DNA of 23,506 bases from a virus (lineage: Duplodnaviria; Heunggongvirae; Uroviricota; Caudoviricetes): positions 1 to 23,506 of the IMG/VR virus record IMGVR_UViG_648276653_000011. One strand, written 5' to 3'. Under the pieces are notes generated by a model. The model did not search any database and was not told the origin of the DNA. It was given only the letters and a program-made list of their open reading frames with translations. The position numbers and the translations under genes were made by a program. Positions within the stretch are counted from its first letter, which is position 1. Each line of letters opens with the position of its first letter. Below are positions 4,360 to 22,930 of this stretch, in pieces.

Positions 4360-7300
4360 TGTACAATCCTCCATCCCGACGCGATGACTGCATAATTGAC
4401 ACAACCCTGCTGTCGATCAGATCCACCAGTCCCCTGGCTGAGCGCGCATCTATCTCGCCATTGCTCCCTTGATTCTGAATGCTGATGTGATACACGGGAG
4501 AATAAACCAACCCCCCCGCCACTATTCACATTGCCAATGGCTCTGACCCCAAGAGAGCCGTCCGCTGCCCGTGTCAGTGGCATGATAGCTTCAGGCCCGG
4601 CCTCGCCCATCAGCCCGGCGCCTTTCGCAAAAGCAAAATACGTCGGTGTATCCACAATAGTGTTACTGTAAGCACTCAGATTTGCCGATGTGTAAACACC
4701 ACCTTTTGCGTTTGCCACCGCCCCCGAAATCCATCCGCCGACCGTACCAAGCCACCATCCGGCACCGGAGAGTGACTTCAGTCCGTTAACAATGGCCGCA
4801 TTCATCAGAATTTTTGAAACTTCCTGGAGAATTGAACTCCCCCAGTTTCTCCAGTCCACAACATTTCCGGCCAGTGCATCGGAAATATTTGATACCAGCC
4901 CGTCCATAGTGGAAACGACAGCATCTGCCGCCTGCGAAGCATAATCGGTGGCACTGTCTGCCCAGTTGGTCAGCCCCTCCTGGAGTCCTGCATTCCAGTT
5001 ATTACGTAAAGCATCGGCCTTTGCATAATAATCCTGCTGATCGCTGAGACGCTCTTCCAGATATTTTTTATTCAGTTCTTTCTCCTGTTTCCACAGGGCT
5101 TCTTCAATTTCTCCGGCCTGATACTGTCTCAGCAGCTCGTTATTTTTCTGCTCAAACTCATGCCGGATACTCCACATTTCCTGGAGTCGTTCGCGCATCC
5201 GTGAGCCTTCACCATATCCCAGTAACTGCGCGTCGTTAGACGCCCGGGTACTGGCATTACTGTCCGCCAGGCTGCTTTCATACGCAGCAAGCTGCTCACG
5301 AATCTTTTTCTGGTCGATGAGTGCTGCATTCTGCAAAAGCGTTTTTTTCTGCGCTTCTGACAGGGTTGATAATTCGCCCTGACTGACCTGATATTTCATC
5401 TTAGCCAGTTCAGTATTCTGCCCTGCCAGTGCTATCTGTTCTTTTTGCTGTTTAATCAGCCGTTTATAAATATCTTCTGTTTTTTCCGCTTCGGTCTTTT
5501 TATGCGCTTTGGGTTTATTTGCCTGGTTATTTCGCCAGGCATCCAGTGAGTTATTGATATAATTCTGTCTGGCTGTCTGATACGCCTCTCCCACAAAGCC
5601 AAGATCATCCGCAGCATAGCCCAGTCGAGCACGCTCACGCGCTTCCCCCTTAAGGCGGGACAGAGCCAGTTCGCGCTTGCTGTTATTCAGTGCGGTCTGC
5701 TGTTTATCATCCAGGGTTGTCTGTGGTAGCCGTAACGGTACATTCACCAGCCCCTGTCGCTGCTGAAGTAATTCATTACCAAGCCCAAGAAGGCGATTAA
5801 ACTCGGTATGCTGCCCATTCATGATCAACAGGGACTGATACGCTTTGTTTTGTTCCGCCGCCTGTTGACGGATCAACGCAACCCGCCGCTCCTCCAGCCC
5901 GGCAAGCACATCCTGAATGGATTGCGCTTTGCCCTGCATTTGTGTGAGACGGGACTGTTCAACTGCCAGTTGATTTGTTGCTTCTGCAAGCCCTTCTGTG
6001 ACTGTTTTTACCGACGTCATGTGGTTAATCATAAAACCGTTATCGGTTGTCCAGCCCGGGTTTGCCAGCACATACTGATAGCCAGCAATTTTTTCCTGTA
6101 AGGATTTAATCTTACTTTTCTGCTCGTCAATTAACCTGTTTTGCTCATCAAGTGCCTGCCGCGTCTTTTCCTCATTATCTGACGCTTCAGGAAGCGACAT
6201 TGCCGACGTTTTCTGGCGAATTTCGTCGATTGTTGCGGCATACTGGCGTGCAGATTCTCTGGCCTGCTCCTGATTCTGATACATCGTGTACCAGGCCGTC
6301 GCCCCCAGCATGACGAGTCCCGGCACACCACCAACCAGCCCTAGCGCACCACTTAACAGACGACTCCCCACTGACGTGACAGTATTCAGCGTTGTCTGCG
6401 CCGCTGTTCTGGCCGCAATATTACGGGTAAGTGACGCCTGAGCAGCTGTCAGCTTCGCTTCTGCTGCGGCCTGCCTTTCGGTACCGCGAGCAGCAACAAC
6501 CGCCTGTTGCGCACGATAAACCGCCGCACGCGCCCTGGCGGTTGCTATCTGTGTCCCCCGAAGTTGCGCTTCAGCAAGAGCCACTTCGTTTCTGGCTGCA
6601 GTAATTAATCCGGCAGTTGCAGATCCAGCAGACGACGCCATATTGCCAAAATATCGGGCTACCCCGACGGCAACCAGTGCGCCAGCTGCAGCAGCCACGG
6701 TATCAATATTGTCTGCAACACCATTCAGCACACCGGAGAGTGTCTTTGTCACTCCGCTTGCCTCGTTCGCACCACCAACCCAGGCCATAAAGGCGTTTTC
6801 AACTTTGGTTGCAGAGGATGAAACAGTATCAGGCATTGCTGCATATTCATCACGCAACGCCCCAAGCTGACTAATCAGTGCAGGAACAACCTTATCGGCG
6901 GTCAGTTTTCCGTTATCCGCCATGGCCTTCAGATCCTTACGGGCAACCCCCATTCCCGCAGCCAGCGCACGAATAACACGATCGCCGTTCTCATTCACCG
7001 AGTTAAACTCTTCACCGCGCAGCACTCCCTGCGCCAGTGCCTGACTGAACTGCATGATCACCGAACTGGCTTCTGCTGTACTGGCACCGGATAATTTCAG
7101 GCCCGTGGAGATCGCCTCGGTGACTTTCAGTACCTCCTCAGAACTGTAACCATACTCCCGCATGGAAGCTGCAGAACGGGCAAAAAGGCTGGCGTTATCA
7201 GAAAACGCCGTCCCCGTTCTCTGGCTGATCGCCATTAATTCACGCTGTGATGCCTGAAAATCATCACTGGACTGTGAGGCCTGCTTCAGACGGGCATTTA

Positions 7301-10212: not shown

Positions 10213-10527
10213 CTACAAAGGAATAAAACGATAAGGCTCCAGCAGAGAAGAAAAACCAAACGGGACTGGTGCCTTGCTGACATCTGAGGAATTTTCCCGG
10301 TTTTCGTACCAGTGCCCGACCAGCAACATGAGCGCCAGCAAAACATCATCAGCTATAAGCACCCCTTCAGGATCACCTTCCGGCACCGTCTCCTCATAAA
10401 GCTTACGGTTGATAAAATTTTCTGCCTTGCGGCAGGCAGCCCGGAAATACAGCATCAGTAACTCATCATCAGTTGCATCATCTGTATCAATACGGCACTG
10501 CGCCCTGAGTTTTTCCACTATTGCTGC
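10213..10527 (-). CDS. Head-tail connector (gp6-like) protein
   Basis: ATG at 10527 preceded by AGGAG (6-nt spacer) gives MAAIVEKLRAQCRIDTDDATDDELLMLYFRAACRKAENFINRKLYEE...; the track ORF 10213..10710 is an upstream extension running into the capsid gene. Confidence 0.6.
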   Translation of the reverse strand, partial: AAIVEKLRAQCRIDTDDATDDELLMLYFRAACRKAENFINRKLYEETVPEGDPEGVLIADDVLLALMLLVGHWYENRENSSDVSKAPVPFGFSSLLEPYRFIPL

Positions 10528-10562
10528 CATCAGAAACTCCTGCCCGCAACACTGTGCGGGCA

Positions 10563-10585
10563 TAAAAAAACCGCGTCGGCGCGGT
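10563..10585 (-). terminator. Terminator-like hairpin (ACCGCG-CCGA-CGCGGT plus T7) 22 nt downstream of the major capsid gene, with a second hairpin (10542..10561) before the connector RBS
   Basis: Plus strand reads aaaaaaa-ccgcgtcggcgcgg; minus-strand stem-loop plus T7; adjacent inverted repeat GCCCGCA-CAGTGT-TGCGGGC read directly. Confidence 0.55.
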
Positions 10586-10606
10586 CTGTAACTGAACAAC
10601 GAGTGG

Positions 10607-11824
10607 TTATTTGCCAGTGAGCGCCTTGATGGCTGCCACATCTTCCAGCACACAGTCAAAACGATGGAAAGCCAGAAATGCCACCTGATCAAACTCAGCA
10701 TAACGCTCAACCAGACGTTTCAGTTCCATATAAGTAACGCGGCGAATGATAAAGCGGTTGAAATCCCCCAGGAAAATGAATTTTTTTCCAGTACCAATCC
10801 CGTCAATAGCCTGATCAATAACATAAGGGATCCCCAGCACAGTAGCCGGCGTACCGCCTGCAATATCCGGCAGCCATAACGGGCGTTTCTGTCCATCCTC
10901 CATCTCTTCAATAGTCTGCAATGTGGCATCATTGAATACCCAGCGGTATTTCGGCCCACCACGATATGCCGGATCAATGGCATGTTTCAGGGCATTCATT
11001 TCTTTCCAGGTGAAAGCGGCAGAGGCTGCAGTCTGGATGGTTCCCGTCACCGACGCTGCCAGCCCTTTTGGCTGTAACGGTGATCCCGTTCCGGTCCCCT
11101 GAACCAGATATTTTGCCTCTCCACGACCAATACGCTGGGCAATACGGTTTGCCAGATAAGATTCAATATCCACCCCACTGTCCTGGAGCAGCTCATTGGA
11201 CACACGAATTATTTTTGATGACAGCTTTTTAGCCCCCAGAATAGCGGTCCCGAACGTCACATCCTGTTCCGTTGCGGCTGTATTTTCCGCCAGCAGTTCG
11301 CCCTCTTCAGTCGTGCCATCAGACGTTGACCAGGTGATATCCTGCCCGGTTGATGTGGTCAGAAGTTGCGCCACACTGGCAATCCCGCCATAAGCCTTCA
11401 TGGTGTCAATGATTTTGTTACGCATCTGCGTGGGCACCGTATATCCGCCCTGAGAATCCGTTGTTACACTCTGAGCCCGCAGTTCACGCATCAGATTACG
11501 CTCTTCAGCATTCAGTTCTGCAAATCCGGCACGCAGAAAACGGTTAAATGCCGCAGCACGCTTCTCTTCCACCGCCTTTTTCCCGTTCTCCGCCTCATTA
11601 TTCTGGCGCTCTTCCGGCCCGGACTCATCCACATATGCCTGATCCTGACGGCGCAACTCTTCTTCACGGGCGATTTGCTCATCCAGCGCATCCAGCTCAG
11701 CTTTCGCCCTGTTCCACTCTGCCCGTTGCTCATCAGTCCATGCGTTATCACCAATTTTTTCATGCAGTGCACGCATATCCTTTGCAATGGTGTTTCGTTT
11801 TTGCTTCATCTCATGAAGTTTCAT
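10607..11824 (-). CDS. Major capsid protein, HK97 family, with N-terminal delta (scaffold-like) domain
   Basis: 405-aa ORF; N-terminal ~100 aa Glu/Arg/Ala-rich coiled-coil-like (MKLHEMKQKRNTIAKDMRALHEKIGDN...ELDALDEQIAREEELRRQD...) followed by a capsid-like body; sits between the prohead protease and head-tail genes. Confidence 0.85.
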   Translation of the reverse strand: MKLHEMKQKRNTIAKDMRALHEKIGDNAWTDEQRAEWNRAKAELDALDEQIAREEELRRQDQAYVDESGPEERQNNEAENGKKAVEEKRAAAFNRFLRAGFAELNAEERNLMRELRAQSVTTDSQGGYTVPTQMRNKIIDTMKAYGGIASVAQLLTTSTGQDITWSTSDGTTEEGELLAENTAATEQDVTFGTAILGAKKLSSKIIRVSNELLQDSGVDIESYLANRIAQRIGRGEAKYLVQGTGTGSPLQPKGLAASVTGTIQTAASAAFTWKEMNALKHAIDPAYRGGPKYRWVFNDATLQTIEEMEDGQKRPLWLPDIAGGTPATVLGIPYVIDQAIDGIGTGKKFIFLGDFNRFIIRRVTYMELKRLVERYAEFDQVAFLAFHRFDCVLEDVAAIKALTGK

Positions 11825-11838
11825 CGTCAGTAGTATCC

Positions 11839-12438
11839 TTATGCATTAAGAAGGGTCAAAAGGCGCTCACGCGCCATTCGTTCATTAACAGCTTTCTTCA
11901 GCGCACCACTCGCCCGCGCTTCCTGCCAGGCTTTCATTGAGCGGACACCGGAGTCTGCGTCCTGATAGGCCGGATATGTCACCGGGCTGACGTCATACAG
12001 ACGAGAAATGCGCGTGATTTCCCGGATAACAATCCCCTCGTCGTCTTCATACCAGCTCTCTCCGTCACGGGCGACACGAAACGCGAACGAGGACTGGTTA
12101 ATGTCACCACGCAACATTGGAGACAGCACCAGGTCACAAATAGTCGGAGTACCCGGTGCAACAATGTCATAACGTAAACCGCGTTCATCCACCGACAATG
12201 ACAATGTGCCGGCAGAACTTCGTCCGAGAATGAAATTAGGATCATGATTAAACAAGCCACGTACATCATCATTCAGTACATCATCAAAAGCCCCCGGCTT
12301 GATGATTTCACGAAATCCCCACAGAGGTTCTGAACGACTGTTAAATACCGAGCCATACCCCAGAATGTGGGTCGGGGCATTATCATATTGTTCCGCCCGC
12401 ACCTCCCCGCTGTAACAGCGCGTTTCACGGTCATTCAT
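11839..12438 (-). CDS. Prohead protease (HK97 gp4 family)
   Basis: 199-aa ORF MNDRETRCYSGEVRAEQYDNAPTHILGYGSVFNSRSEPLWGFREIIKPGAFDDVL...; between portal and capsid; 8-nt overlap with the portal gene. Confidence 0.8.
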   Translation of the reverse strand: MNDRETRCYSGEVRAEQYDNAPTHILGYGSVFNSRSEPLWGFREIIKPGAFDDVLNDDVRGLFNHDPNFILGRSSAGTLSLSVDERGLRYDIVAPGTPTICDLVLSPMLRGDINQSSFAFRVARDGESWYEDDEGIVIREITRISRLYDVSPVTYPAYQDADSGVRSMKAWQEARASGALKKAVNERMARERLLTLLNA

Positions 12439-13657
12439 CGTTCTTTTCCTCTTTGCCTTTCGTATCTTTAAAGTTATTCAACGGATTTGCTGCATTTACG
12501 CTGACCAGCATTTCATCCAGACCGTCAACCGGGTTCATATCCTCAAATGCCCTGGCTTCATTCCGACTCATCCAGCCATCTGTAATGGCAAAGTGATAGA
12601 ACTGCGCACGCTCCTGTGGGGTCCCACGGAGCAACCCCGTGAGGTTGAAACGAACGTAATACCCGGCAGCCCGTTCTGTACGGGTAAACAGGCGACGGTT
12701 AAGCTCCTGCTCCCAGTTCGCAACCCAGGGCATCATCGTGTAGCGAACAAACTGAATCGCCTGCTGCGTAATATTCGAAAATGTGGCTTTTTCCAGGTCA
12801 TTAATCATGTGCGCCGGGACATTAAAAATCCCTGCAATCATCGACCTGTTCAGCTTGGTCATATCAATGATCTGAGCATCCACCGGAGAAACTGTCAGAG
12901 CGCGGTAATCCAGTTGCGCAGGCAACAGCATGGTTTTATTTTCCTGGCTGCGAAGCGCTGTCACCGCCCGCTGCCACATATTTTTAAGCCTGCCCCAGCT
13001 CTGTTCGTTCAGTTCATTTTTCACAGAAATAATACCGGCAGGACGGGCATTACCGTTAAAAAAGGCGCTGGTATACTGCTGGCCACTCATTCCCATACCA
13101 ATGGTTTCAGCATGCTGCATGATCGGGCTCAGTCCCATTTTCTGATTGTTTCCCAGCGCCCTGATATGGATCATGTCGTCCGGACTTACCGCAAATGCAC
13201 CCTCTTCGTTATACACCCCGTAAGTATGACGCCCACCGGTGTTAAGTAACGTGGTTTCCCATGGCATACAGCATTCAAGGCTGGTAACCTCGCCACGACG
13301 ATTACGTTTTACCCACGTATAACCATTGCCCCACCCCAGCACATGACGCTGCTTCAGTTCCCGCCACTTATAGCTGGTCTGCCAGGCATTAGGTTCATCA
13401 TGAACGAGCCAGAACAACGGATGATCGCGTGCCGGCTGAACATGCTCATTCGTTTTTCGCATCACATGCAGGGGCATCTGAGCCACACTGGATGAAATAA
13501 CATAAATACAGGCATAGACAGCAGCCAGCTTCATGGATGTTTCCGGACTGACATACACATCCCGGGCAAAAATATTATCCGTCTCAGCGGCCTCTCCGGT
13601 TACCGGAACCGAGGGATTTTCCAGAGGCTCACTGCGAAACAGAGCATCAAGAAGCAT
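12431..13657 (-). CDS. Portal protein (HK97 family)
   Basis: 408-aa ORF MLLDALFRSEPLENPSVPVTGEA...; size and position downstream of the large terminase; GAGGAGA RBS upstream. Confidence 0.85.
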   Translation of the reverse strand: MLLDALFRSEPLENPSVPVTGEAAETDNIFARDVYVSPETSMKLAAVYACIYVISSSVAQMPLHVMRKTNEHVQPARDHPLFWLVHDEPNAWQTSYKWRELKQRHVLGWGNGYTWVKRNRRGEVTSLECCMPWETTLLNTGGRHTYGVYNEEGAFAVSPDDMIHIRALGNNQKMGLSPIMQHAETIGMGMSGQQYTSAFFNGNARPAGIISVKNELNEQSWGRLKNMWQRAVTALRSQENKTMLLPAQLDYRALTVSPVDAQIIDMTKLNRSMIAGIFNVPAHMINDLEKATFSNITQQAIQFVRYTMMPWVANWEQELNRRLFTRTERAAGYYVRFNLTGLLRGTPQERAQFYHFAITDGWMSRNEARAFEDMNPVDGLDEMLVSVNAANPLNNFKDTKGKEEKNDE

Positions 13658-13804: not shown

Positions 13805-15562
13805 TCACAGAATTAACAGGTCCTCATCAGGATCAAGCGTGGACAGAAAGTCATTCACGCCCCCGCCATTTACCAGAAAGCGGCTCATGGCTGTAAAAAG
13901 CGCAACAGGGCCGTCGATTTTTGCTTCCGGCGTGGATTTATTCGGGAAGATGTTGTCGTTTTTGTCCGGTTTTACAGTAACGTTAGACATCATCCAGTTC
14001 ATGACCGGATGATTGCTGTGATGGAAACGCCCGGCATAAACCAGTGATTCCGTTTCCTTCATGGCCTCTGACAGATTGCGGACCGTCTGCGGAACCTCCA
14101 CCAGCGGTATCCCTTCTTCAGCCAGTGCCAGGCTGAACTGCATTGCGCTCCACGGGTCAAATCCCAGTTCCCTGAGGTTTTCACCGCCAATCCATTCCAG
14201 TAAGTCACTTTTTATCTGAGCATGATCGATAACATCACCATCCGTCAGGATGAGCTTATCCATCTCCGCCCACTTCCGGTAAAGTTCTGCCTGCTGCCGC
14301 GAGCATCGTTCCAGCCGTCCTTCCGGAAGCCAGAATTTAAAATCAGCATGAACATGTCCGTTATCGGTTCGCCAGAGTTTTGCCGCCGCACAGATATCAA
14401 TCTTATGAGCAAGGTCGACGCCGACCCACATGGGATATGTTTTTAGCTCATGTTGTGGAGCAATGTATTCGCACTTCTCCCACTTAATCATATCCATCCA
14501 GGCAGATTCGGCAGTGACCCACACATTCATGTGTTTGGTAAAAAAATTCACCCGCGCAGAGACCTGCTCCTTCGCTTTTTTCGCCAGACGACGCAGATCA
14601 TCCCAGCGTTTACAGATGCCCAGGCCAGGATTCGCTTTCTGCCAGACCGTTTCATCAAACGGATCATCTCCCTCATCGAGCGTGTAAATGATCGCAAAGT
14701 AAGAGTCGTCTTTTACAGCGCCCTCCACGTCGCTGTTATAGCCTCGCAATACCTTGATGGCGTAATCACGCTGCTCGTAACAAATCCCTTCCTTGTTAAA
14801 GCCAGCCGTGGTGATACCAAATAACAGGGACTGCAGACGGGCACCGGTTGCTGTTTCCAGAACGTCCCACACGTCGCGGGTTTTATGTGCATGCAGCTCA
14901 TCAATAATGGCACAGTGGATGTTCAGACCGTCCAGATTGTTTGCATCCGAGGAAAGCGGTTCAAATTTTGATGCGCTCTGCTCCTGGTAAATCGCCAGCT
15001 TGTTGAAGTCAAACAACCGCCCGAGTGTCGACCGGGCTTTTCTGACCATATTTTTGGCGTCTTCAAACACGATTCTGGCCTGATCACGCGTGGTTGCGGC
15101 TGAATACACCTCAGCACCACCTTCACCATCTGCCCCCGTCATATACAGACCGATACCCGATGACAGGGTTGATTTTGCGTTTTTACGGGCGACTTCGTTG
15201 TACGCCGTCCGGAACCGGCGCACCATCACCGGGCGTCCACTGCCATCGCTGCGCATGACAATTTCCCCGGTCTCTTCATTCACCAGCGGAATGACAAAAC
15301 CAAAAATATTAATGAGGATAAATACATGCCAGTCCATCAGTTCAATGGGCTGGCCTGCCAGCGCCCCTTTCACATGAGGCACAAATTTGTAGAAATTCAG
15401 GATGTGCTGCGCACGGGGTTCACTGAAATAAATCCCCCGCTCTTCGCCGTACTTCAGATCATCAAGAAAACGCTGGCAGGCTAGGCGGACAAATTCGCCA
15501 GCAACAATTTCTCCTGCAACAACACGTTCGGCGTAGCGGATCCCGTCAGCCACTTTTGCCAT
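13805..15562 (-). CDS. Terminase large subunit
   Basis: 585-aa ORF MAKVADGIRYAERVVAGEIVAGEFVRLACQRFLDDLKYGEERGIYF...; size and position between TerS and portal; start overlaps the TerS stop. Confidence 0.85.
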   Translation of the reverse strand: MAKVADGIRYAERVVAGEIVAGEFVRLACQRFLDDLKYGEERGIYFSEPRAQHILNFYKFVPHVKGALAGQPIELMDWHVFILINIFGFVIPLVNEETGEIVMRSDGSGRPVMVRRFRTAYNEVARKNAKSTLSSGIGLYMTGADGEGGAEVYSAATTRDQARIVFEDAKNMVRKARSTLGRLFDFNKLAIYQEQSASKFEPLSSDANNLDGLNIHCAIIDELHAHKTRDVWDVLETATGARLQSLLFGITTAGFNKEGICYEQRDYAIKVLRGYNSDVEGAVKDDSYFAIIYTLDEGDDPFDETVWQKANPGLGICKRWDDLRRLAKKAKEQVSARVNFFTKHMNVWVTAESAWMDMIKWEKCEYIAPQHELKTYPMWVGVDLAHKIDICAAAKLWRTDNGHVHADFKFWLPEGRLERCSRQQAELYRKWAEMDKLILTDGDVIDHAQIKSDLLEWIGGENLRELGFDPWSAMQFSLALAEEGIPLVEVPQTVRNLSEAMKETESLVYAGRFHHSNHPVMNWMMSNVTVKPDKNDNIFPNKSTPEAKIDGPVALFTAMSRFLVNGGGVNDFLSTLDPDEDLLIL

Positions 15563-19650: not shown

Positions 19651-19925
19651 TGTGGTGCTTTTTGTGGGAGTCATCCACTTACGCACTTTGTTTTGCCATG
19701 CCAGCAGTTAGCTTCTGCTGTAAAACTATTCATGCAGCAAACCTGCACTTCACCACAATGGTTAGCATACTTTTCCTGATTAAGGTTTTGCCAAATATGC
19801 TGGCCATTGTTTCATGTATTGGACCTCCTTATTTTTATTAAAGAGATCCAATATTCACTACTCTGTCCGTATCTCTACTCAGGCATCAGCCTTCTTCGTT
19901 ATCGTATACAGACGAGCGATGAATT

Positions 19926-20141
19926 TTAATCAGTAATGATGACATTTGCTGCTGCAGGACCTTTAGCACCACTCTCTATAGAGAAGGTAACCTTTTGACC
20001 TTCAAATAAGGTTCGATAATTATCATTCTGAATCGCAGAAAAATGCACAAACACATCTTTACTACCATCAACAGGAGAAATAAAGCCGAAACCTTTATCA
20101 GCGTTAAACCATTTTACTAAACCAGTCATTTTATTTGACAT
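19926..20141 (-). CDS. cspB: Cold shock protein CspB-like (CspA family)
   Basis: 71-aa [74 protein letters not shown]; canonical RNP motifs KGFGFI and VFVHF; TAAGGAAT RBS. Confidence 0.9.
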
Positions 20142-20441
20142 TCTACATTCCTTAACTTGAGCCTTTCGGCATAAATGGTTTGCATAACAGAAACGACTTC
20201 GTACTTAATTGGAGAGACTCAAAGAAGGAATAAGTGAATAACACCTGAAATGAGAACTGCTTTAGTAAACTACTTCGTATATCGTCTGTTCTTCAAACCG
20301 ACGCAATCATTAACGCATAGTTGAACATATGAAGCAATGTTTATTTTAGACATCCAGCCATCTTCAACCCCATCAAAAAACTATAGCTTTCTTCAGGAAC
20401 GTGTGTATAGTGCGCCAAGTTATCAGTATTAAGGAATTTTT

Positions 20442-21075: not shown

Positions 21076-21828
21076 TTATCTCGTCACCTTCCTCAATTGC
21101 GCTTCCGCGTATGCTTCTTCCTGCCAGCACTTTGTTACCAGTTTACCAATGACGTCCGCATACCCCTTATACCACTGATAATCGGTCAGGTCTGGTACCA
21201 GCTTCTGGACATGACGTCGTGCCAGCGTGGTCGGTAAACGACTAAACCGGTTTCCATTACAACGCCCACAAATCTTATATACCGGTACGCCATGAAACCG
21301 GGTTCTTTTTTCATCCAGAACAATCCCTTTACCCTTACACCCTCTGCACGCTGTGCTGACTTCGCCCTTACCATGGCAATGCTGACATAGTTCCTTCACC
21401 CATTCTTCCTTGATTACAGATTCCCCGCGTCTGTAGTGTTTCACCACTTCGCGCAATACATTATAAAATCCCGTACCTGAACAATGCTCACAGCGAGCCT
21501 TACTTGCCGCAGACCTGGAGTAATCAGCAAAGGCAAAACTCACGAGGTAAGGAATAATCTGTAACCGGATTTCTTCACTCAATTTGTTCAATGTCGGGTT
21601 ATCCAGTGCCATCGCGTAATTTAGCAGGCCTTCAATCGCAAACTGAGGGTCCTGAACACCAACTTTTGCCAGAAATAAGGCCAACCCAAGTGGTGCTTTC
21701 GACTGCACCATCCCCTGCGCTGCCATTACATCCGTAATTGTTAAACAACCGGTGCCTGTCGCTGGAGCGTCATCGCTCAATTTTGGAGATTTTGGGGAGT
21801 AATATTTTGGTAAGGCTTCAAGGTTCAT
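21076..21828 (-). CDS. Late-gene antitermination protein Q
   Basis: ATG at 21828 with GGAG 7 nt upstream gives MNLEALPKYYSPKSPKLSDDAPATGTGCLTITDVMAAQGMVQSKAPLG...; Cys-rich C-terminal cluster (CEHCSGTG...CQHCHGKG...CRGCKGKG...CGRCNG) suggesting Zn binding; position before the late promoter and lysis genes. Confidence 0.8.
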   Translation of the reverse strand: MNLEALPKYYSPKSPKLSDDAPATGTGCLTITDVMAAQGMVQSKAPLGLALFLAKVGVQDPQFAIEGLLNYAMALDNPTLNKLSEEIRLQIIPYLVSFAFADYSRSAASKARCEHCSGTGFYNVLREVVKHYRRGESVIKEEWVKELCQHCHGKGEVSTACRGCKGKGIVLDEKRTRFHGVPVYKICGRCNGNRFSRLPTTLARRHVQKLVPDLTDYQWYKGYADVIGKLVTKCWQEEAYAEAQLRKVTR

Positions 21829-21841
21829 GCTCGTTCTCCAC

Positions 21842-22930
21842 TTACGCCAGTACGCCAATTGCCAGCGCGCGATCGATAAAACGAAATATCAGCTCCAGTT
21901 GGGAGCCATACTTCTCTTCAAATGCCACTGTATCCGTATGCAGCTCGTTGTGATGCTTTCTGCACAAAGGCAACACAAAGAGATCATGTGCTTTTGTTCC
22001 CATTCCGCCCTGCCCGTGACCAATCAGATGATGCGGATCGTCGGCTGGCATACCGCAGCAAGCACACGGCTGTGTCTTAACCCAACGTGTGTATTTCTCC
22101 TTAACCCAGCGGCGACGTTTAGGCAGCTTCATGAAAGATTCCGGAGACTCTGGATCAACGGTGATGCTTACCACCGTCTTTTCCTGTGGTGGTTTTTGTT
22201 GCTGGTAGGCGTAAGGCAACGGTGCAAGATTTTTTGTGCGTTGTTTCAATATGCTGGTGGCGGTCTGCTCTCCCGGTACGATGTCGCTTTCGCGGTACAC
22301 CGAGCAGATTTTTTCCGCTGGTAATCCCAGCGAACGACGCGATACAGCCTCAGGTAGTGCATCCACCACCTGATTGCAGACCGCCCACCAGGATAATTCA
22401 GCCAAAGATAATTCCCGCTCCTGCGTACCGCTTATTGCGTGACGGATGACGTCAATCACCCATGCTGTCAGATTTTGTTGAGCAAGCAGATCCAGTGATT
22501 CCGATGTCTGGTCACGCAGTTGGTTGTCGCAGTGCCAACACAACACCATTGCGCCGGTACCATAACGGTGAATGACTGTTTCAGAGTGATGGTAATCGCC
22601 ATTAGGCCACTGGCAGGATGTAACATGACGTAATAGCCAGTCAGACAATGCGCCAACGCCGCCAGCAGCACGAATCACCCGTTCGTTACTAAAAAACGGC
22701 AGCAATGTTTTGTCTTCCACCAGCGGCTGGCGAACGGCAGGAACGACTCCGGATGGCAGATTACGCATGCTTTTTGGTTCCGGTTCCACCAGCACTCGAG
22801 GATTATGAAATATCTGTATGGATTCACGGCCCGGCTTAAGGACCACCAGCCCAAGCTCAGGCACCAGAACAGGTCTAAGTAATACCCGCACGTTACCTCC
22901 AGATCCGTTGCTGGAAAGTGCGGGACGCAC
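21842..22930 (-). CDS. DUF968-like protein (YdfU-like; start uncertain)
   Basis: C-terminal ...CACCGMPADDPHHLIGHGQGGMGTKAHDLFVLPLCRKHHNELH... recalled as the DUF968 signature; sits immediately upstream of Q as in Qin-type prophages; annotated start is GTG at 22930, overlapping the upstream 92-aa ORF; internal ATG at ~22768 is an alternative. Confidence 0.6.
   Translation of the reverse strand: MRPALSSNGSGGNVRVLLRPVLVPELGLVVLKPGRESIQIFHNPRVLVEPEPKSMRNLPSGVVPAVRQPLVEDKTLLPFFSNERVIRAAGGVGALSDWLLRHVTSCQWPNGDYHHSETVIHRYGTGAMVLCWHCDNQLRDQTSESLDLLAQQNLTAWVIDVIRHAISGTQERELSLAELSWWAVCNQVVDALPEAVSRRSLGLPAEKICSVYRESDIVPGEQTATSILKQRTKNLAPLPYAYQQQKPPQEKTVVSITVDPESPESFMKLPKRRRWVKEKYTRWVKTQPCACCGMPADDPHHLIGHGQGGMGTKAHDLFVLPLCRKHHNELHTDTVAFEEKYGSQLELIFRFIDRALAIGVLA

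Follow-up and report, generated by a model that had tools for sequence, protein, structure and literature searches.

A conserved two-hairpin element between the capsid and adaptor genes of an HK97-like Escherichia coli prophage: a probable leaky intrinsic terminator joined to a read-through hairpin

A virion needs several hundred capsid subunits versus about 12 copies of the adaptor, and both are encoded on one long late transcript. Leaky terminators or stabilising stem-loops are known to set expression ratios within operons, as exemplified by T-phi after capsid gene 10 of phage T7 and by the REP stem-loops between malE and malF. In phages, T7 and LUZ7 among them, expression is known to be balanced by such leaky signals. 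The phage L genome paper describes a terminator that closes the procapsid module, within the late operon, and calls the roles of such elements unknown, proposing either partial termination or the stopping of spurious, non-antiterminated transcription. As to the signal itself, strong intrinsic terminators have been found to follow GC(U)7RU, with release at the final U, a sequence resembling the elemental pause consensus GS(N)7RY; mutating positions -11/-10 or -2/-1 abolished termination with the hairpin and the U-tract intact (Battaglia et al. 2026, bioRxiv 10.64898/2026.05.29.728758).

The closest described junctions are those of HK97 and SfV. In HK97 (NC_002167, 5192-5213), a putative terminator is annotated after gp5, in the same position as the element studied here, between the gene of an HK97-fold capsid and that of a gp6-type Ad1 adaptor. 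Three further putative terminators are annotated in the HK97 late operon, one on either side of the major tail gene and one ahead of the tape measure gene. Both elements consist of a GC hairpin followed by Ts, and the HK97 loop is of the GNRA type. However, HK97 has a single 7-bp hairpin (GGGCGGG-GAAA-CCCGCCC) with four T only and without a second hairpin, and its sequence is not alignable with our module. The Shine-Dalgarno (SD)-like GGAGG of HK97 lies 5' of the hairpin, whereas the SD of our element is found 3' of its second hairpin. At the HK97 gp5-gp6 junction (locus L255, 683-725), this GGAGG is the sole SD-like sequence; it is placed immediately 5' of the hairpin and 28 nt before the ATG. 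It is possible that hairpin folding would bring this SD near the start codon, in the manner of a split ribosome-binding site.

SfV (NC_003444) carries between orf5 (capsid) and orf6 (adaptor) a homologous element, composed of the same CCGC/GCGG hairpin, a U7, a GUGCCCGC...GCGGGCAC hairpin and an SD. What the SfV record labels a "putative rho-independent terminator" (5547-5584; locus L005, 1855-1892) is the second of these hairpins plus AGGAGGTTTTATG, covering the adaptor SD and ATG and leaving the first hairpin and the U7 outside. The kind of element is therefore already known, being annotated as putative at the homologous (SfV) or analogous (HK97) position. What is new is modest and comes from sequence analysis: the arrangement in two parts and its occurrence in many genera, the fit of the first hairpin to the (U)7RU rule, covariation in the second hairpin, a likely mis-assignment in SfV and a mosaic joint. 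[quoted passage not shown]

The stretch of DNA analysed here (23,506 nt, hereafter the window) comes from a lambdoid, HK97-like E. coli prophage, of which it is the lysis and morphogenesis arm, and the genes discussed are all on the minus strand. Their order is Q antiterminator, cold-shock-protein (csp) moron, holin, lysozyme, Rz, HNH endonuclease, TerS, TerL, portal, S78 protease and capsid, followed by the gp6-like Ad1 adaptor, head closure, gp10-like, tail completion and major tail genes, the G/T chaperones and the tape measure. Escherichia phage Evi and several vB_EcoS prophage-derived phages match the region at 99.8% identity. The capsid-adaptor junction was found in 712 of 5426 complete E. 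coli genomes, 85 of which match it only in part. The genes to which we refer are the following:

21076-21858, minus strand: Q-type late antiterminator gene, upstream (PF03589 Antiterm, E = 3.5e-54)
13805-15562, minus strand: TerS and TerL
12431-13657, minus strand: portal
11839-12438, minus strand: S78 protease
10607-11824, minus strand: upstream cistron, coding for the major capsid protein of 405 aa with the HK97 fold (PF05065 Phage_capsid, E = 4.5e-71)
10213-10530, minus strand: head-tail adaptor gene (Ad1, gp6-like), 105 aa, the downstream cistron (PF05135, E = 5.7e-14; labelled "Ad1 adapter protein" in phage Evi)

The phage Evi counterpart of the capsid gene is labelled major capsid protein and is 99.8% identical. 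Between the capsid stop codon (TAA, 10609-10607) and the adaptor gene there is a non-coding spacer of 76 nt, which contains, in the direction of transcription:

10588-10606, minus strand: variable spacer from the capsid stop to hairpin 1, differing in length and sequence among relatives
10568-10587, minus strand: hairpin 1, the predicted terminator stem-loop, matched by the terminator scan and present in the minimum free energy (MFE) fold (dG -9.1 kcal/mol)
10564-10570, minus strand: U7 tract as read from the sequence, its first U doubling as the last core-stem pair
10562-10563, minus strand: A-U "bubble-edge" dinucleotide (-2R/-1U), with the predicted RNA release site at U10562
10541-10562, minus strand: hairpin 2, with arms UGCCCGCA (10562-10555) and UGCGGGCA (10548-10541) and loop CAGUGU (10554-10549), present in the MFE and centroid folds
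10537-10540, minus strand: GGAG, the SD from which the adaptor would be translated, adjoining hairpin 2 on its 3' side

The core of hairpin 1 has 6 bp, formed by ACCGCG (10585-10580) and CGCGGT (10575-10570) around the loop CCGA (10579-10576). It can be extended through G·U and A-U pairs to eight pairs, AGACCGCG/CGCGGUUU (10587-10568), which is the form given by the terminator scan. The initial annotation had described this minus-strand hairpin correctly, but its T7 after the stem counted one T twice, CGCGGT being followed by 6 T. It had also put 22 nt between the capsid stop and the stem, where we have counted 21 nt. Hairpin 2 has 7 bp, GCCCGCA (10561-10555) with TGCGGGC (10548-10542), or 8 bp with the extra U-A pair 10562/10541. 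It was indeed found to abut the adaptor ribosome-binding site, as first described, ending at the GGAG. This SD is followed by a 6-nt spacer (UUUCUG) and by the ATG at 10530-10528.

Other readings of the spacer were also considered. An in-frame ATG at 10563-10561 was rejected as an alternative adaptor start: it has no SD before it, and the R-T-G at this place forms the base of hairpin 2, in covariation with C-A-Y. A terminator on the plus strand was likewise rejected, the complements being followed by A-runs or by no T-run. No internal promoter was predicted on the minus strand in the capsid-adaptor spacer.

The capsid-adaptor feature is real and non-random. Folding of a 96-nt region yields both hairpins, with an energy of -38.6 kcal/mol compared with -26.2 ± 3.4 kcal/mol for shuffled sequences (z = -3.7; 1 of 200 shuffles equal). 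GS-T7-RT occurs once in the 23.5-kb window (0.06 expected), and the 18-nt core GCGGTTTTTTTRTGCCYG also once (0.00 expected, with 2 mismatches allowed). A generic terminator scan showed no overall enrichment in the window, with 25 sites versus 19.2 ± 4.6 expected. Rfam searches gave no match at 10400-10750 when the whole window was run at gathering thresholds, and for the region itself at E <= 10 only chance-level matches of at most 18 bits were obtained, the thresholds being 37-60. The element resembles T-phi and the malE-malF REP in being a structured element directly 3' of the gene of the most abundant product, with less needed of what lies downstream. It differs from T-phi, which acts on T7 RNA polymerase, and from REP elements, which are dispersed repeats: a search for REP/BIME-like copies found the module only once in the window, 2 mismatches being allowed, and its copies in relatives are tied to the capsid-adaptor junction.

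We have then compared the junction across relatives, using a capsid alignment with 48 loci from bacterial genomes, 80 from viral contigs and annotated phages. The module was present after the capsid stop in every Enterobacterales relative examined, with capsids 65-80% identical to that of the window, in Klebsiella, Citrobacter, Kluyvera, Edwardsiella, Serratia, Proteus, Providencia, Xenorhabdus, Mixta, Lonsdalea and other genera. Homologous modules were also found in Klebsiella phages, in SfV and in Edwardsiella phage EPP-1. The shared layout is a variable spacer, (R)CCGC-loop-GCGG, T7, R-T-G-C-C-Y-G... opening a second hairpin of 7-14 bp with a loop of 4-18 nt and a complementary arm; an SD of the GGAG type follows after 0-2 nt and precedes the adaptor start by 5-7 nt. 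The mean majority-base frequency was 0.87 in the module, compared with 0.42 in the preceding 12-nt spacer and 0.49 at third codon positions of the capsid 3' end; GCGG, T7 and TGCC were conserved at 0.98-1.00, as was R-T (0.98-1.00).

Based on its sequence, hairpin 1 is a predicted intrinsic terminator, with release expected at U10562. The GC-rich hairpin is located just before a U-tract, on the strand of all late genes, and in non-coding DNA past the capsid stop. The T7 at 10570-10564 corresponds to the U-tract of about 7 nt expected at -9 to -3 from the release site. Three of the four preferred bubble-edge bases are present (G-11, i.e. G10572, with A-2 and U-1), and the GG formed with G-10 (G10571) fits the pause form GS, not the optimal GC. 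The element shares with the terminators of Battaglia et al. (2026) a hairpin directly before a U7 at -9 to -3, G-11, R-2 and U-1, and departs from their optimum in having G instead of C at -10, a stem of only 5-6 bp and a stronger second hairpin directly after.

These features are shared by the relatives. The T7 is exact in 47 of the 49 folded relatives and replaced by T8 in the other two, and R-U always follows the T-run. Among 52 distinct homologues, CCGC/GCGG hardly varies, a single C-to-U wobble being seen, and all stem cells are paired (100%). As the core pairs essentially never vary, no covariation was found in hairpin 1 within this set, so that its structure is read only from the invariance, the type of loop and the motif match. 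The loops belong to the extra-stable GNRA or UUCG classes in 32/49 relatives, the stem has 5 bp in most of them, and dG is about -8 to -9 kcal/mol (median -8.0 in relatives, against the -9.1 of the window).

The sequence GCGGT7RTGCCYG is not specific to the junction: about three quarters of its 80 phage-contig matches lie in other contexts, and a general explanation was therefore sought in the (U)7RU rule. In an unbiased scan of phage contigs for ACCGC-N4-GCGG-T7, about 46 of 66 distinct sites, by our own count, had a Y nine positions past the stem (+9) and a G at +10. Many unrelated phage GCGG-T7 terminators are followed by RTGCC, often continuing as ATGCCTGGAG-N5-8-ATG, with the SD right after the terminator, or as a small GCCTG...CAGGC hairpin (viral contig loci L135-L324). 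Both the T7+A+TG and the T8+CG variants of one homologous terminator family retain the Y at +9 and the G at +10. Of RTGCC, the R-U part fits the (U)7RU rule, and the recurrent GCC goes beyond what the rule accounts for.

Hairpin 1 is probably leaky, partial termination being expected from its short, weak stem and from a -10 base other than C. The reading that we favour, with somewhat better than even confidence, is that of a leaky intrinsic terminator joined to a read-through hairpin, which would provide more capsid than neck and tail message, the read-through hairpin acting as a decay barrier and/or controlling the adaptor ribosome-binding site. The two-part RNA element would act on the late mRNA, transcribed from the minus strand. 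RNA polymerase would pause with the RNA 3' end at U10562 and part of the transcripts would be released, leaving the capsid message in excess over the neck and tail message. A polymerase not modified by Q would stop more often than a Q-modified one, and the element would also shut stray, non-antiterminated transcription off from the downstream genes.

Q-modified polymerase generally reads through intrinsic terminators. Given the Q antiterminator gene upstream, the transcription drop at hairpin 1 during lytic growth may thus be small. For the partial terminator proposed after the capsid gene in the initial annotation, the sequence hallmarks (GC stem, U7, R-U), the conservation and the weak stem are favourable, whereas the Q gene argues against it, as a Q-modified polymerase would be expected to ignore the signal. 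The literature was searched for mapped transcripts of HK97- or SfV-like phages; it gave general statements only, and no 3'-end, coverage or reporter data were found.

If lytic transcription bypasses the terminator, the element could instead serve the lysogen, stopping polymerases that do not come from the Q-controlled late promoter (spurious or moron-derived) and keeping the neck and tail genes silent in the prophage. This would agree with the three terminator-like hairpins along the late operon (at 10587, 9058 and 7617), with the putative terminators annotated at the corresponding places of HK97 and with the csp moron, which lies upstream in the same orientation; the possibility has also been raised in the phage L paper. 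A short and weak stem would make a poor tight stop, however, and hairpin 2 would have no explanation. We regard such an insulating function as rather doubtful as the main role; it is compatible with a leaky terminator joined to a read-through hairpin, and does not exclude it.

Hairpin 2 starts at the predicted release site, so only read-through RNA would contain it. To align it, we have built a covariance model from 20 sequences and used it on 54 homologues, with the search repeated at E <= 1e-4; the first search with the model had also drawn unrelated terminators. Plain MAFFT misaligned the 3' arm of hairpin 2, whose loop lengths differ, and the covariance-model alignment was used instead. 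With this model, the SfV element scored 52.4 bits. In the alignment, which is fitted to the model structure, 94.7% of hairpin 2 cells were paired; in the comparison with slid controls, the observed pairing was 96.6% versus 34-61%. In the same model-fitted alignment, double-sided changes were seen in 4 of the 9 pairs (A-U/G-C/G.U; C-G/U-A; C-G/A-U/G-C), amounting to 32 double-change cells against 12.4 ± 2.4 after shuffling, with neither the count nor the covariation score reached in any of 500 shuffles; the homologues are phylogenetically related, and recombination may homogenise the module. Wobble cells were strongly one-sided, with 44 G.U/U.G against 4 A.C/C.A, and such an excess of G.U over A.C indicates a structure selected in the mRNA-sense RNA. 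Thus, the compensatory changes and the strand-specific wobble bias identify hairpin 2, at the level of sequence comparison, as a selected RNA structure.

The hairpin 2 region is also the more stable part of the element, with a dG of about -16 to -22 kcal/mol in relatives (median -19.2), stronger than hairpin 1. As a terminator, the function given to it in the SfV record, it was rejected: no U-tract follows the stem, and Us appear only 6-7 nt later, 3-5 in number. [quoted passage not shown]

Within the leaky terminator and read-through hairpin model, two roles are the most likely for hairpin 2. It could block 3' exonucleases, so that the capsid portion of a long transcript would persist once the RNA has been cleaved downstream. 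It could also hold down the adaptor ribosome-binding site, which has no single-stranded standby region and whose purine SD could be paired by the U-tract, as an extension of the stem, in most relatives. For the capsid segment of Q-antiterminated transcripts, the exonuclease barrier is equally plausible as SD occlusion, and it fits the single strong hairpin of non-enteric relatives: in Halomonas, Marinobacter and Aeromonas, with capsids 48-62% identical to that of the window, one strong GC hairpin without a T-run follows the capsid stop.

Protection from decay could even be the main function, with Q-modified polymerase ignoring hairpin 1 and the hairpins, above all hairpin 2, blocking 3' exonucleases and stabilising the capsid segment after endonucleolytic cleavage downstream of it, as the malE-malF REP does. 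The upstream Q gene, a strong hairpin 2 without a U-tract of its own and the T-less hairpin kept by Halomonas, Marinobacter and Aeromonas all point in this direction, and the AU-rich SD-to-AUG spacers downstream could offer RNase E sites. Such a barrier would leave unexplained the strict U7 plus R-U and the GG at -11/-10, which are determinants of termination and pausing, as well as the close apposition of hairpin 2 to both U-tract and SD (0-2 nt gaps). As the principal role, we consider it rather unlikely.

We have also examined the accessibility of the SD by equilibrium folding. The SD starts 0-2 nt after the hairpin 2 stem in 33 of 47 relatives. In equilibrium folds of the 47 relatives, its median P(unpaired) was 0.05, rising to 0.34 with the U-tract replaced and to 0.35 without the upstream RNA; the main SD partner in these folds was the U-tract, which extended hairpin 2. 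The window behaved differently: P(unpaired) for G-G-A-G was 0.89/0.58/0.52/0.03, the U-tract added at most 0.3 pairing, and replacing the U-tract did not open the SD further (again in the equilibrium fold). The SD is predicted to be mostly open in the window, where an A.G mismatch (A10563/G10540) breaks the extension between U-tract and SD. An SD-sequestering operator is thus predicted in the relatives and not in the window, by equilibrium folding only. The initial proposal that the second hairpin may modulate adaptor translation finds indirect support in the predicted SD pairing of relatives, and does not find it in the window, whose SD is predicted to be largely accessible.

These folds raise the alternative that the element is chiefly a translational attenuator, in which the U-tract of the read-through RNA would extend hairpin 2 coaxially by pairing with the purine-rich SD and keep adaptor translation low, as befits the about 12 copies needed per virion. 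The predicted release of the SD in relatives on U-tract replacement or removal of the upstream RNA is in line with this, and so is the fact that both flanks abut the stem at any loop length (4-18 nt). On the other hand, the mismatch breaks the extension in the window, where the prediction is of a mostly unpaired SD on which the U-tract has no influence; a U pairs with any purine, so that covariation cannot test the pairing; and the prediction is one of equilibrium folding only. We hold attenuation as the chief role to be unlikely.

The recombination history of the junction was also informative. In four viral contigs (L099, L100, L102 and L183), identity to the window is at least 98% through both hairpins up to the 3' arm of hairpin 2, and from there on identity to SfV is 92-100%. 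They are natural recombinants, by sequence comparison, between a window-type capsid and an SfV-type adaptor, with the crossover inside the shared GCGGGCA. Several adaptor types (39-65% identical to that of the window) follow the same module, which is therefore also a crossover point between the head and the neck/tail modules. The element pinpoints where head and neck modules have been joined by recombination.

The module might then have been conserved purely as a DNA homology patch for the exchange of head versus neck/tail modules, having no function as RNA. The switch of the four contigs to SfV identity at the hairpin 2 3' arm, the varied adaptors behind the same module and the 85 of 712 E. 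coli genomes with partial matches to the junction would be accounted for in this way. Nevertheless, the compensatory changes and the bias of G.U over A.C indicate selection on pairing in the sense-strand RNA, the conserved bases are the determinants of termination, and the crossover is better read as a consequence of the conservation than as its cause. Hence, we find a linker of this sort very improbable.

A more speculative proposal, which we put forward as an idea with only a slim chance of being correct, combines these properties in a dedicated head/neck "junction cassette" of HK97-like phages of enterobacteria. One and the same U-tract would be the release signal of the leaky terminator and, in read-through RNA, an anti-Shine-Dalgarno strand clamped by hairpin 2, and the module would also be the preferred crossover point between head and neck/tail genes. 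If so, transcriptional read-through and translational repression of the adaptor would be wired into a single 50-nt element.

The MFE fold of the read-through RNA contains in addition a long-range helix on the minus strand between 10523-10533 and 10592-10600 (GUUGUUCAG with CUGA..GCAGC), enclosing both hairpins and pairing the A of the adaptor AUG. This helix is probably incidental, since the spacer that forms one of its sides varies among relatives.

Two other hairpins of the window, both on the minus strand, sit where HK97 has annotated putative terminators. The first, at 9058-9042, reads ACCCGCC-GCT-GGCGGGT with a T8 and is closely followed by the SD and the ATG (9017) of the major tail gene. 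The second, at 7617-7602, reads AACCGC-UUCG-GCGGUU with a T7 and is closely followed by the SD and the GTG of the tape measure gene. The 9058-9042 hairpin precedes a high-copy product, the major tail protein, and is a poor fit to a simple stoichiometry rationale. In the phage Evi record (L001, 10831), the major tail CDS starts 53 nt upstream of ATG 9017 (at about 9070 of the window), which places this hairpin and its T8 inside the CDS. An HK97-style start of the major tail gene, after the hairpin and the SD, seems more likely than the start in the phage Evi record.

Finally, a full-length cspA-type thermoregulator 5' UTR (RF01766, 158.8 bits) was detected at 19910-20302 on the minus strand, preceding a 71-aa cold-shock-domain gene (19926-20141, minus strand). 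The UTR and the gene are inserted between the Q antiterminator and holin genes, and a terminator-like hairpin (19645-19626, minus strand) follows the pair, which resembles a cold-shock moron placed in the region of the late leader.
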